Below the pieces are notes generated by a model. The model did no database searches. It was given only the letters and a program-made list of their open reading frames with translations, and was not told the origin of the DNA. This document shows, in pieces, positions 39 to 4,981 of a stretch of 5,271 nucleotides of DNA; position 1 is the stretch's first letter; every line of letters begins with the position of its first letter. Location: the IMG/VR virus record IMGVR_UViG_2693429733_000017; one strand, written 5' to 3'. The translations under genes and the position numbers were made by a program. Source of the stretch: a virus (lineage: Duplodnaviria; Heunggongvirae; Uroviricota; Caudoviricetes).

Positions 39-386
39 CTACTGTGTTTCTGTTAGCCATTGTCCGGCGGCTTTTTGCTGGGTAATGCTTGCCTGCACCT
101 CTCTGGCTGATCTTTGCCAATATTTAGAAGTTAAGAGGAGGTCGTCCGCTAAATCTTCCAGACGACTACCGATCTGTGCGTCGGTATAGCCCTTTTTCAC
201 CATTCCGTTGACAGCTTTTGAAATTAAACCAGCAGAGTTATTGGCAAAGTCTTTCAAATCCTTTTTAGTTAAGAATCCTTCATTCATTAAAGTGTTAATA
301 CCAGAATCACCGCCCTTCCATATGCCTTTCCCTGTTTTCTTATCAACTACATATTCAGCCTCGTCATAGCTTTTGGTAGCGCGTTC
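39..386 (-). pseudogene. 3' fragment of an unidentified protein-coding gene, N-terminal part removed by the IS911 insertion
   Basis: Minus-strand frame is open from the IS911 left end (386) to a stop at 39-41; the listed 82-aa ORF (39..287) is its internal-Met part. No family recognised from the ~116 aa remaining. Confidence 0.4.
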
Positions 387-422
387 TGAAGTGGCACACT
401 GAATTTGGCCACCTGAACAGAG
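387..422 (+). repeat. IS911 left terminal inverted repeat (IRL)
   Basis: TGAAGTGGCACACTGAATTTGGCCACC at 387 onward pairs imperfectly with the reverse complement of the right end (TGAAGTAGTCAACAAAAACTGGCCACC). Confidence 0.7.
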
Positions 423-458
423 GTGATATGCTCACCTCAGAACAACACAGGTGCTCCA

Positions 459-1635
<1,177 letters not shown>

Positions 1636-1706
1636 CCCTTGCTGGACTTGAACCAGCGACCTGGCGATTATGAGTCGCTCGCTCTGACCAACTGAGCTAA
1701 AGGGCC
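1636..1706 (-). tRNA. tRNA with anticodon CAT, tRNA-Ile2 (lysidine, AUA-reading) type, 3' end truncated by IS911
   Basis: Reverse complement reads GGCCCTTTAGCTCAGTTGGTCAGAGCGAGCGACTCATAATCGCCAGGTCGCTGGTTCAAGTCCAGCAAGGG. It folds as a cloverleaf (D stem GCTC/GAGC, anticodon loop CTCATAA, T stem GCTGG/CCAGC, T loop TTCAAGT). The 5' acceptor strand GGCCCTT needs AAGGGCC, but only AAGGG is present before the IS terminus. Resembles E. coli ileX/ileY from memory. Confidence 0.75.
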
Positions 1707-1792: not shown

Positions 1793-1820
1793 ATAAAAAA
1801 ACCCGCATAAAGCGGGCTCT
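1793..1820 (-). terminator. Rho-independent terminator downstream of the Q-like gene (candidate tR'-type terminator)
   Basis: Minus-strand RNA: CCCGC-UUUAU-GCGGG followed by UUUUUUU (plus-strand A-run 1795-1801, stems 1802-1806 and 1812-1816). Confidence 0.6.
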
Positions 1821-1895
1821 TTCAAATGTCCATGTCTGCTATTCGCCTCGCGGTACAGCTTTGCGAAGCGTACAAGAATTGAAGCAGTTTTTACG

Positions 1896-3374: not shown

Positions 3375-3662
3375 TCAATCCTGCTCAAGATTGTAGATGA
3401 GTTTATTCTTCAGCAAAAGCAGAAAACCAGCCTTAAAACCAATCTCTTTCAAAACCCGTAATGATGTGACAAATTCGTCCTCACGCAAAATAAAACCGTC
3501 CGTCAGAAGTCCATTACAAAAATAAAATAACACAGCACCGCTCTTCCTTTGTTGAGATTGCAAACATCTAATGCGGCAATGGCTGACAATCGCTCCATTC
3601 TCAACGCGCACAGCATAGAGGCCATTTTCACTAAAAATTTCACGCAATTCTTCGATTTTCAT
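3375..3662 (-). CDS. Hypothetical 95-aa protein, first gene of the nin-like operon, function unknown
   Basis: ATG at 3662 preceded by GGAAGGA; 95 aa MKIEELREIFSENGLYAVRVENGAIVSHCRIRCLQSQQRKSGAVLFYFCNGLLTDGFILREDEF... No family recognised. Occupies the position of rem in the Qin prophage (hokD-rem-ydfU-quuQ), as I recall that map. Confidence 0.5.
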   Translation of the reverse strand: MKIEELREIFSENGLYAVRVENGAIVSHCRIRCLQSQQRKSGAVLFYFCNGLLTDGFILREDEFVTSLRVLKEIGFKAGFLLLLKNKLIYNLEQD

Positions 3663-3743
3663 CTTCAGAATCCTTCCAGATAAATAGCTCTCCCCTGTTC
3701 GGGGTCCATCCCTCTTCTCCCTGCGCGCTACTTAAGTGAGTCG

Positions 3744-3771
3744 ATTCTATCTGCGAAGGTGCGCGAATCAA
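3744..3771 (-). promoter_or_regulatory. Candidate sigma70 promoter for the 95aa-YbcN-YbcO-Q operon
   Basis: Minus strand TTGATT (plus 3766-3771), 16-nt spacer, TAGAAT (plus 3744-3749), about 80 nt upstream of the ATG at 3662. Confidence 0.3.
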
Positions 3772-3789
3772 ATTCACCGGAAATAAACA

Positions 3790-3833
3790 ACAAAAAACCC
3801 GCCGAAACGCTGAGAGATCACAGCGATGGGCGG
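3790..3833 (-). terminator. Rho-independent terminator at the 3' end of the hok mRNA
   Basis: Minus-strand RNA has stem CCCGCC...GGCGGG (plus 3798-3803 / 3828-3833) with a nested CGCTG/CAGCG stem, followed by UUUUUU (plus A-run 3792-3797). Confidence 0.6.
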
Positions 3834-3839
3834 GTTAAG

Positions 3840-3855
3840 TGCGGGTGCGTTGAGG
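3840..3855 (-). promoter_or_regulatory. hok mRNA 3' fold-back-inhibition (fbi-like) element, complementary to the mRNA 5' end
   Basis: Plus 3840-3855 TGCGGGTGCGTTGAGG equals the reverse complement of plus 4226-4240 (TGCGGGTGCTTGAGG) apart from one bulged G, so the two pair within the minus-strand transcript. Confidence 0.45.
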
Positions 3856-3911
3856 ATGCCTGACACATCAGAGGTGGGCGGGGATGGGATCAGCTCCCCG
3901 CCCGGTCACTC

Positions 3912-4067
3912 TTACTTCCTGGATTCGTAGTCTACGAAGACAGCGACCTCCGTCTGGCCGGTTCGGATTCGTACCTCACAGAGGTCTTTCCTCGTTACCA
4001 GTGCCGTCACTATGACGGTTAAACAGATGACGATCAGGGCGATTAACATCGCCTTTTGCTGCTTCAT
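3912..4067 (-). CDS. hok: Hok-family type I toxin (small membrane peptide), closest to HokD/RelF and HokC/Gef
   Basis: 51 aa MKQQKAMLIALIVICLTVIVTALVTRKDLCEVRIRTGQTEVAVFVDYESRK, near-identical over most of its length to E. coli HokD/HokC as I recall them. ATG at 4067. Confidence 0.85.
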   Translation of the reverse strand: MKQQKAMLIALIVICLTVIVTALVTRKDLCEVRIRTGQTEVAVFVDYESRK

Positions 4068-4124
4068 AGCCTGCTTCTCCTTGCCTTTCGGCATGTAAGA
4101 GGCTAACCTACATGTGCAAAGCAT
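3912..4124 (-). CDS. mok: Mok-like in-frame upstream extension of hok (modulation-of-killing reading frame)
   Basis: ATG at 4124 with GAGG 8 nt upstream; 19-aa extension MLCTCRLASYMPKGKEKQA in frame with hok, the same arrangement as mokC/hokC in E. coli K-12. Confidence 0.55.
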   Translation of the reverse strand: MLCTCRLASYMPKGKEKQAMKQQKAMLIALIVICLTVIVTALVTRKDLCEVRIRTGQTEVAVFVDYESRK

Positions 4125-4188
4125 GAAATTGGCCTCAGATTAATGTTAAGCGTCTTGCCGGACGCGTAATGTTAACTGGGGCTTTTCT
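4117..4188 (+). ncRNA. sok: Predicted Sok-like antisense RNA (boundaries approximate)
   Basis: Plus-strand candidate promoter TTGCCT (4081-4086), 17-nt spacer, TAACCT (4104-4109). The transcript would be antisense to the mok start and SD (4122-4136), then an imperfect hairpin at 4141-4174 and a U-rich tract at 4182-4190. Architecture only; no direct homology confirmed. Confidence 0.3.
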
Positions 4189-4225
4189 CTATCTGCCTTT
4201 TGGTGTTCATGCCTGAAGCAGATAG

Positions 4226-4240
4226 CCTCAAGCACCCGCA
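4226..4240 (-). promoter_or_regulatory. hok mRNA 5' tac-like element, pairs with the 3' fbi-like element
   Basis: RNA 5' region GCGGGUGCUUGAGGCU...; complementary to the 3' element at 3840-3855. Confidence 0.45.
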
Positions 4241-4243
4241 GTC

Positions 4244-4273
4244 ATTCTACTTACCTCGCCAATATGAAATCAA
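4244..4273 (-). promoter_or_regulatory. Candidate sigma70 promoter of the hok/mok mRNA
   Basis: Minus strand TTGATT (plus 4268-4273), 18-nt spacer, TAGAAT (plus 4244-4249); predicted start about 4237-4239, right at the beginning of the tac-like element. Confidence 0.4.
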
Positions 4274-4294
4274 TCAGAAAGGTGCCCCATAAAA

Positions 4295-4981
4295 TCACTC
4301 CTTCTCTTCTTTACCGTAGTGGAGTTGACCAATTTTGATAAGAGGGCGTCCCTGAGATTTGCGGTGTAGATTGGTATCGCGCAGAGAATACACACAGCCA
4401 CAATATTCCTGCTGATAGAATTTTTCGCGCTTGCTGATTTCAATCATACGGGACGAGCCGCCCTGCTTGCGCCAGTTATAATCCCAGTACACCATGCCCG
4501 GATAATGCGCGACGGCTCGCCGCCCACAGTCGTTAACCTGCTGCATATTTTTCCAGCGTGAAATGCCCAGTGAACTGCTGATCACACTGAAACCATTTTC
4601 AGCGGCGTACAGCGCCGTCCGCTCAAAACGCATGTCAAAACACATGGTGCAACGGATCCCTCGTTCGGGCTCCCATTCCATTCCTTTGGCTCGTTCAAAC
4701 CAGTTGTCTGTGTCGTAATCAGCATCAATAAACGGCACGCCGTGTTGTTCAGCAAAGCGAATATTCTCATCCTTACGAATTAAATACTCTTTCTGAGGAT
4801 GAATGTTCGGGTTGTAGAAAAAGATGGTGTAGTCGATTCCCGAGGCCTGAAGCGCCTCCATCACCTCACCGGAACATGGAGCACAGCAAGAGTGCAGTAG
4901 TAGTTTGTTTGCCCCGTTTGGGAGCTCCAATTTGGGCCGTTTGAAATCAGCAACTGTCATAAATATGTTTATTGGGGTCAT
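4295..4981 (-). CDS. queH: QueH-like protein (DUF208 family, putative epoxyqueuosine reductase or related Fe-S enzyme)
   Basis: 228 aa with [48 protein letters not shown] and a C-terminal [10 protein letters not shown] Cys motif, all typical of QueH/DUF208 as I recall the family. Start uncertain: ATG at 4981 or 4960, neither with a clear SD. Confidence 0.8.

Follow-up and report, generated by a model that had tools for sequence, protein, structure and literature searches.

The minus strand of the 5,271-nt stretch of phage DNA analysed here (hereafter the window) carries, from position 4273 to 3790, a type I toxin-antitoxin locus of the hok/mok/sok family that is complete and belongs to the hokD/hokW lineage. 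This confirms the initial annotation, which had proposed such a locus with paired 5' and 3' ends: Rfam and Pfam matches, covariation and about 91% identity to hokW/mokW/sokW agree on it, and the end pairing is of the tac/fbi type. The Rfam sok model (RF01794) matches positions 4237-4062 of the minus strand over its full length (model positions 1-157), at a score of 117 bits (gathering score 59; E = 4.6e-27). Three weaker Rfam matches were rejected, as they lie outside the locus and below their gathering scores: Plastid-ycf2 corresponds to the reverse strand of a tRNA, and Trp_leader and isrK rest on a terminator hairpin. The sequence elements, the alternative pairings and the covariation among relatives were computed for this locus. 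We consider it very probable that this is an intact member of the hok/mok/sok family working by the mechanism of R1 and hokW.

This locus is already known, widespread and annotated, and is therefore not novel; it is a close kin of the characterised hokW-sokW of Shiga-toxin phages. Two RefSeq E. coli genomes contain the exact region (100% identity) and name its toxin hokD; weaker matches, mostly with 80-95% identity, were found in 4713 out of the 5426 complete genomes of this species. The best phage matches were the nin-region copies of HannyBb, mEp460_ev081, Evi and Tritos, and hokW/mokW/sokW of 933W, VT2-Sakai and other Stx phages (about 91% identity). Since RefSeq labels the toxin alone ('HokD') and omits mok and sok, we supply the full element map for this allele; the locus has little importance beyond this annotation, and would add one more example but no new principle if the copy is active.

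The toxin gene hok (3912-4067, minus strand; 51 aa plus stop, MKQQKAMLIALIVICLTVIVTALVTRKDLCEVRIRTGQTEVAVFVDYESRK) starts at an ATG at 4067 and is preceded by a Shine-Dalgarno (SD) sequence, AAGGAG (4082-4077, minus strand). Its product matches the Pfam family HOK_GEF (PF01848) with 79.9 bits against a cut-off of 22 (E = 9.8e-23). In the list of open reading frames, Hok forms the last 51 aa of a 70-aa frame (mok; 3912-4124, minus strand; 70 codons plus stop, including hok), and Mok is thus an in-frame extension of 19 codons, as first read. The mok frame itself matches PHROG 251 ('MokW-like host killing', E = 3e-32). Its own SD sequence, GAGG (4133-4136, minus strand), lies 8 nt 5' of the mok ATG, and the aligned relatives conserve it. 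We ruled out an in-frame mok as an unusual trait of this copy, since it is the norm of the family: the locus of 933W and that of an IncFII plasmid (L053), in which an ATG and 18 codons stand ahead of hok, are arranged alike. The Hok of this plasmid is 100% identical to the sequence taken here for the Hok of plasmid R1.

Upstream of mok, the candidate mRNA promoter of the initial annotation was recovered at 4244-4273 (minus strand). This sigma-70-like site combines a -35 box TTGATT (4273-4268), an 18-nt spacer and a -10 box TAGAAT (4249-4244), at the right distance from the start of the Rfam model. A consensus scan gave 9 matches out of 12 for this promoter, and the -10 box is invariant in the copies of 933W and HannyBb. 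We infer that this element serves as the mRNA promoter. Transcription would likely start at G4237, 7 nt past the -10 box, where the Rfam model also begins. With +1 deduced from this spacing and model start, and the 3' end from the terminator, the predicted full-length mok-hok mRNA covers positions 3790-4237 of the minus strand (about 448 nt).

The intrinsic terminator (3792-3834, minus strand) was recognised from its fold, with a stem CCCGCC...GGCGGG followed by U6. Whereas relatives display the simple form CCCGC-TTCG-GCGGG-T5, a loop insertion of about 23 nt with its own 5-bp hairpin is present here. A terminator scan of positions 3700-4400 returned no match, because this internal stem insertion defeats a simple pattern; the absence of a terminator in this interval was rejected, as the fold gives a stem and a U-run at 3834-3792. 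Between the hok stop codon and the terminator, a G+C-rich stem-loop (3876-3903, minus strand; 9-bp stem in the fold) is presumed to protect the 3' end of the processed mRNA, a role taken from the mutational study of R1 (PMC9841398). Both 933W and HannyBb retain this stem in another sequence, and the element is 7 nt longer in this locus.

The two ends of the predicted mRNA are complementary. The translational activator tac (4226-4237, minus strand; GGGUGCUUGAGG) forms the 5' end and pairs with the fold-back inhibitory element fbi, CCUCAA(C)GCACCC (3843-3855, minus strand). At the DNA level, tgcGGGTGCTTGAGG (4240-4226) is complementary to CCTCAAcGCACCCgca (3855-3840) over 6 + 9 bp with one bulged C. 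The 9+6 bp complementarity with one bulge reported at first is therefore present in the DNA, but three pairs out of the nine (4238-4240) precede the likely +1, so that the helix in the RNA is probably 6+6 bp (12 bp, one bulged C) instead of 9+6. Tested against the 170 nt past the stop codon, tac gave a duplex of -21.1 kcal/mol, while shuffled sequences had a mean of -13.4 (sd 1.9). Folding of the predicted transcript of about 450 nt, the check initially suggested, has been carried out and joins both ends: the minimum-energy fold of the 448-nt RNA (4237 to 3790) reaches -191.2 kcal/mol (z = -7.96), and in this unconstrained fold the 5' end closes on 3855-3843 while the mok GAGG is buried against a CCCC box (ucb).

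Alternatively, the complementarity might be a chance match, in which case the transcript would not be end-closed and Sok alone would regulate it. The helix is indeed short (12 bp in the likely RNA), dinucleotide shuffling of the 3' region produced an equally good duplex in 2 of 2000 trials, and the transcript ends are predicted. Against this, the unconstrained fold of the whole RNA adopts the tac/fbi pairing by itself, and the fbi site is fixed among relatives. From 33 non-identical loci with a tac motif, 31 have their best complement 45-56 nt past the stop codon, including those of Photorhabdus, Pantoea and the IncFII plasmid. In addition, transcript position 4 shows compensatory change with its fbi partner (U-A in 18 loci, C-G in 12, out of 32). 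In R1, moreover, the tac/fbi interaction is experimentally established (PMC9841398). Overall, a chance match appears extremely improbable, and we retain the end-closed transcript.

We then considered the pairings of shorter transcripts. For the first 30-56 nt, the fold is a local hairpin of positions 3-13 with 19-29 (about -17 kcal/mol), i.e. of tac with 4219-4209; this early (metastable) hairpin, whose 3' arm occupies 4209-4219 on the minus strand, sequesters tac in the nascent transcript. In folds of 62-140 nt, tac pairs with AAGCCCC (ucb, an anti-SD; 4178-4184, minus strand), a box that pairs with the mok SD region when the RNA is closed and with tac when it is open. The 140-nt fold contains the tac/ucb stem, the Sok-target hairpin and the pairing of the mok SD region GAGGC with dcb, GCCUC (4099-4103, minus strand), and corresponds to the Rfam consensus structure, tac/ucb being its first helix and SD/dcb its third. 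On the opposite strand, dcb overlaps the spacer of the Sok promoter. When tac/ucb was forced in the full-length RNA, the energy was -178.0 vs. -191.2 kcal/mol, and the closed form is thus favoured by 13 kcal/mol. With the RNA truncated at position 370, a point between the 3' stem-loop (335-362) and fbi, the open form had -142.4 kcal/mol and the optimum -144.3, a gap of only 1.9 kcal/mol. As the optimum of the truncated mRNA (ends 366-384) keeps the early hairpin and does not choose the open tac/ucb form, constrained energies were compared instead, and the switch rests on near-equal energies and homology and not on the optimum. These energies fit what the closed-to-open switch of R1 would predict (PMC9841398).

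To these folds we added the covariation of relatives. Our scan of one genome per species yielded 49 loci; those of 933W, phage HannyBb and the IncFII plasmid were included as well. The alignment used here comprises 32 loci from Escherichia, Shigella, Kluyvera, Photorhabdus, Pantoea and this plasmid. For the full-length structure, 84.1% of the cells of this alignment are paired, vs. 36-44% when the partners are slid by 1-3 columns, and 40 pairs change on both sides. The early hairpin is paired in 94.6% of cells, with compensatory changes at pairs 4:28 (U-A in 18 loci, C-G in 12) and 12:20 (G-C in 13, A-U in 11). Position 4, which is bulged in the tac/ucb stem, therefore tracks its fbi and early-hairpin partners together, and the 5'/3' pairing carries the coupled covariation of the family. 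Such coupled covariation was reportedly described by Gultyaev, Franch and Gerdes in 1997 as a hallmark of hok mRNAs. The tac/ucb stem (99.1% paired) is invariant in the 32 relatives, and covariation consequently neither supports nor contradicts this part of the model; each of the five SD/dcb pairs is conserved in 29-32 of the 32 loci. Because loci that have the bulged C and loci that lack it are shifted against each other in the aligned 5' half of fbi, the pairing is undercounted at pairs 7-12 (helix 1), and per-sequence duplexes were used for these tac/fbi pairs.

The antitoxin is encoded on the plus strand. The antisense promoter and hairpin announced over the mok start are both found at the sequence level: a promoter (4081-4109, plus strand) with a -35 box TTGCCT (4081-4086), a 17-nt spacer and a -10 box TAACCT (4104-4109), as read from the sequence, and a 71-nt Sok antisense RNA (4116-4186, plus strand), whose coordinates were transferred through the alignment from the sokW misc_RNA of AF125520 (phage 933W). 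This GenBank entry annotates mokW, hokW and the 71-nt sokW RNA. At its 5' end, the predicted Sok has an unpaired 15-nt tail that is complementary to the mok start; a long hairpin and CUUUU follow. The RNA folds with -28.6 kcal/mol (z = -4.66 for the surrounding 91 nt), is covered by the Rfam sok match and is co-linear with the annotated sokW; its hairpin has about 17 nt more than the Rfam consensus. On the mRNA, the loop of the SD/dcb hairpin that Sok would target, CUUUGCA (4121-4115), contains UUUG, in agreement with the YUNR (U-turn) motif that Franch et al. are said to have described in 1999 in this loop. At the same site, 933W has CUGA and HannyBb CUAG. More generally, the block 4131-4112, which is both the mok start and the recognition target of the Sok 5' tail, is among the most variable stretches of copies that are otherwise about 90% identical, and the copies compared include three from a single Shigella flexneri genome (L005, L006 and L009). 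Given this variable block, each copy may own a private antitoxin specificity, and the allele studied here may be a distinct Sok specificity type.

By homology with R1 hok/sok and the phage hokW-sokW, this locus would function as follows. A constitutive promoter would produce a stable mRNA of about 448 nt, in which tac is held in the local 5' hairpin as long as the RNA is nascent. In the finished mRNA, tac would pair with fbi at the 3' end, and ucb would lock the mok SD, so that neither translation nor Sok binding could occur. Slow 3' trimming would then take off fbi, and tac would move to ucb, which would free the ribosome site of mok and the loop targeted by Sok. At this stage, the short-lived 71-nt Sok would pair across the mok start, and RNase III would cut the duplex. 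Once the Sok supply stops, mok would be translated, as would hok by coupling, and the 51-aa Hok peptide would damage the inner membrane. For slow 3' processing, RNase III cleavage of the Sok duplex, an unstable Sok and a stable mRNA, hokW-sokW provides partial evidence (PMC8621323). For transcription, 3' processing, RNase III decay, toxicity and biological role, we infer the behaviour of this copy from these relatives.

The locus is surrounded by phage genes. Its neighbours on the minus strand are, in order, queH (4295-4981), hok, a 95-aa phage ORF, DUF1367, YbcO and a DUF1133/Q-like gene, and together they mark the nin region of a lambdoid prophage riddled with IS elements. Farther along are a tRNA, a copy of IS911 and a fragment of a tape-measure (tail) gene, with IS911 abutting the phage tRNA and the fragment. 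The presence of IS911 and a tape-measure fragment beside the Q region indicates a rearranged and probably defective prophage. Between queH and the hok promoter, no terminator was detectable. Early rightward transcription after induction might read through the locus, collide with Sok transcription and so time the release of Hok. Taken jointly, the two ideas raised here, a private Sok specificity for each copy or a nin read-through that ties Hok release to induction, are speculative, and we consider it rather unlikely that one of them holds.

Is the copy still functional in such a prophage? It could be a silent relic, complete in appearance but no longer expressed or killing, that persists by hitch-hiking in a prophage remnant. 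In line with this, the host prophage is decaying (the IS911 junctions mentioned above), and pseudogenes and copies of IS1, IS2 and IS600 crowd a near-identical locus (L001). Several relatives are themselves decayed: one lost the tac motif (L017), four have disrupted hok frames (L043, L047, L050 and L052), and K-12-type hokD lacks the whole 5' half. Moreover, the insertions in the 3' stem-loop (7 nt) and in the terminator loop (about 23 nt) are private to this allele. The locus itself, however, is uninterrupted by any frameshift, stop codon or IS, and both promoters, both SD sequences, tac, ucb, dcb, fbi and the Sok hairpin are intact at the sequence level. The two differences from 933W in the 5'-UTR (positions 21 and 24) both preserve the pairing of the early hairpin. 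Furthermore, the toxin differs by a single residue out of 51 (R50 here, E50 in 933W) from HokW, which arrests growth (Takada et al. 2021, PMC8621323). We therefore regard a silent relic as improbable and keep the intact locus as our reading.

The biological role of this copy can be approached from its nearest homologue. The one role with direct evidence in this lineage is that of hokW-sokW in lysis, and not the prophage stabilisation or abortive infection proposed at first for the present locus. In Sp5, mitomycin C makes sokW vanish and HokW appear in a RecA-dependent manner; hokW-sokW hastened lysis and doubled phage release after induction, and its deletion delayed lysis and halved phage release (PMC8621323). 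By analogy, in an inducible phage, the most likely role would be to help lysis on induction. As the prophage surrounding this copy is defective, the lysis-helper role of Sp5 cannot apply here as such, and selfish retention is the most likely role in this decayed prophage. Genes of the hok family are enriched in prophages, and post-segregational stabilisation and phage defence have been discussed as possible roles, which would be putative for prophage copies (bioRxiv 10.1101/2025.08.07.668861). As the same preprint summarises, the chromosomal hok loci tested earlier displayed no post-segregational killing.

Compared with known systems, the locus is closest to hokW/mokW/sokW of 933W and Sp5, sharing about 91% of its nucleotides between the -10 box and fbi. 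933W has its elements in the order found here and shares with this locus the sequences of tac, ucb, dcb, fbi, the Sok hairpin and the Sok -10 box. Both copies are prophage-borne, but this one is placed between queH and the Q-like gene of the nin region, whereas that of 933W lies near the right end of the genome with other neighbours. They also differ in the -35 region, in the Sok 5' tail and mok start (CCAAUUUCAUGCUUUG here vs. CUCAAUCCAUGCUGAA in 933W) and in the terminator after fbi, which is clear here while none is evident at that place in 933W. Experimentally, sokW expressed from its own promoter neutralises HokW, and RNase III and Hfq contribute (PMC8621323). In the same study, the 'Pro-less' primers YO-421/422 altered the sokW TAACCT and abolished the antitoxin activity (PMC8621323); this mutated -10 box is identical to TAACCT at 4104-4109.

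The similarity extends to plasmid R1 (parB), the founder of the family. As here, R1 has an in-frame mok of 70 codons, and its fbi lies about 54 nt past the stop codon and is followed by a terminator. The sequence taken here for R1 Hok was found by tblastn to be only 42-45% identical to close relatives of this Hok. A similar identity (44%) was reported between HokW and R1 Hok (PMC8621323). The architecture is shared, and the pairings are alike for tac/fbi, tac/ucb, SD/ucb, SD/dcb and the early hairpin (PMC9841398). The tac sequence is GGGUGC here vs. GGCGC in R1, and fbi is changed to match. Since this copy is prophage-borne and not plasmid-borne like R1, post-segregational killing in the plasmid sense is at most a putative role for it.

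Finally, we compared the locus with hokD (relF) of the K-12 Qin prophage. The NCBIfam scan had left the name 'HokD' unsettled, as the Hok subfamily model scored 55 bits, under its cut-off of 73, and the HokA match was also sub-threshold; hence this direct comparison with a K-12-type locus (L018). The first 44 residues of the two toxins are identical, and the 3' stem-loop, fbi and the terminator are homologous, while the C-termini differ (FTAYEPEE in K-12 hokD vs. FVDYESRK here). The name given in RefSeq reflects toxin similarity only. In the K-12-type locus, tac, ucb, mok and sok are absent, and the two ORFs directly upstream of hok are presumably relB and relE. The present gene is not a hokD in the K-12 sense, i.e. 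the third gene of a relBE operon, as it has a full 5' UTR, mok and sok, with queH upstream. Homology between the two loci begins only at the hok SD, which indicates that the window holds the complete form, and that K-12 hokD is a truncated remnant of it.

The Tyr47 codon of hok lies within the heptamer CUACGAA, which includes a UACG context (window 3924-3930, minus strand). In the alignment of 32 related loci, the TACGA at this codon is invariant or nearly so. The same heptamer makes up the anticodon loop of tRNA-Arg(ACG). This tRNA is the natural substrate of TadA. In hokC, hokD and hokE, the corresponding codon is recoded from Tyr to Cys by A-to-I editing, which raises toxicity, as described in a preprint survey of Hok (bioRxiv 10.1101/2025.08.07.668861).

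The block around the mok start (window 4112-4131, minus strand) corresponds to the single-stranded 5' recognition tail of Sok, encoded on the plus strand. It is among the most variable stretches between copies of the locus that are otherwise about 90% identical. Moreover, a single Shigella flexneri genome holds three differing versions of this block (L005, L006 and L009 among the related hok loci of our genome scan). The variability of the Sok tail and the co-residence of several versions would fit an avoidance of cross-talk.

We also compared the 3' end of the hok mRNA with that of its relatives. The loop of the mRNA terminator (3792-3834, minus strand) carries an insertion of about 23 nt with its own 5-bp hairpin, and the 3' stem-loop (3876-3903, minus strand) exceeds that of 933W (a Stx2 phage), phage HannyBb and other relatives by 7 nt. 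In L004, a near-identical copy of the locus, a T-to-C change disrupts a single base pair of the inserted hairpin, and no compensating change restores it. Just past this terminator, the promoter consensus scan detected a second promoter-like site (TTGATT-16-TAGAAT; 3744-3771, minus strand), both hexamers of which are the same as those of the hok promoter. This site is upstream of the 95-aa ORF (3375-3662), which belongs to PHROG 340, a family of unknown function.

Five near-identical hok loci (L010, L012, L036, L041 and L046) were found in assemblies labelled as a Veillonella parvula MAG, Xanthomonas pisi, Acinetobacter idrijaensis, 'Candidatus Scatousia' and an uncultured Haemophilus MAG, and one further near-identical locus is present in an 'Actinobacillus phage' record. 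Being about 90% identical to DNA of E. coli phages, and often lying on short contigs, these loci appear to stem from contamination or mis-binning and not from true hosts.

Downstream of the DUF1133/Q-like gene, we identified a strong terminator hairpin, GAGCCCGCUUUAUGCGGGUUUUUUU (1796-1880, minus strand), whose Rfam matches to isrK and Trp_leader are weak and sub-threshold. Its position presumably fits a short Q-controlled transcript of the tR' type of lambdoid phages. tRNA gene detection gave a tRNA with anticodon CAT (1633-1706, minus strand). It is the first member of a cluster of phage tRNA genes located downstream of the Q-like gene; the remainder of this cluster is absent from the window. 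This tRNA gene is directly adjoined by an IS911 copy of the IS3 family (387-1632, plus strand; orfA 459-761, orfB to 1627). Immediately past the IS911 copy lies an 82-aa ORF (39-287, minus strand) that has a match in the central part of a tail tape-measure protein (PHROG 16051, E 6e-6). This direct adjacency suggests that an IS-mediated deletion fused the Q region to the tail genes, with loss of the lysis and head genes. In the otherwise near-identical L001, by contrast, IS1A and four tRNA genes are found at the place of the window's IS911, and the counterpart of the CAT tRNA is annotated there as tRNA-Ile, i.e. the lysidine-modified type.
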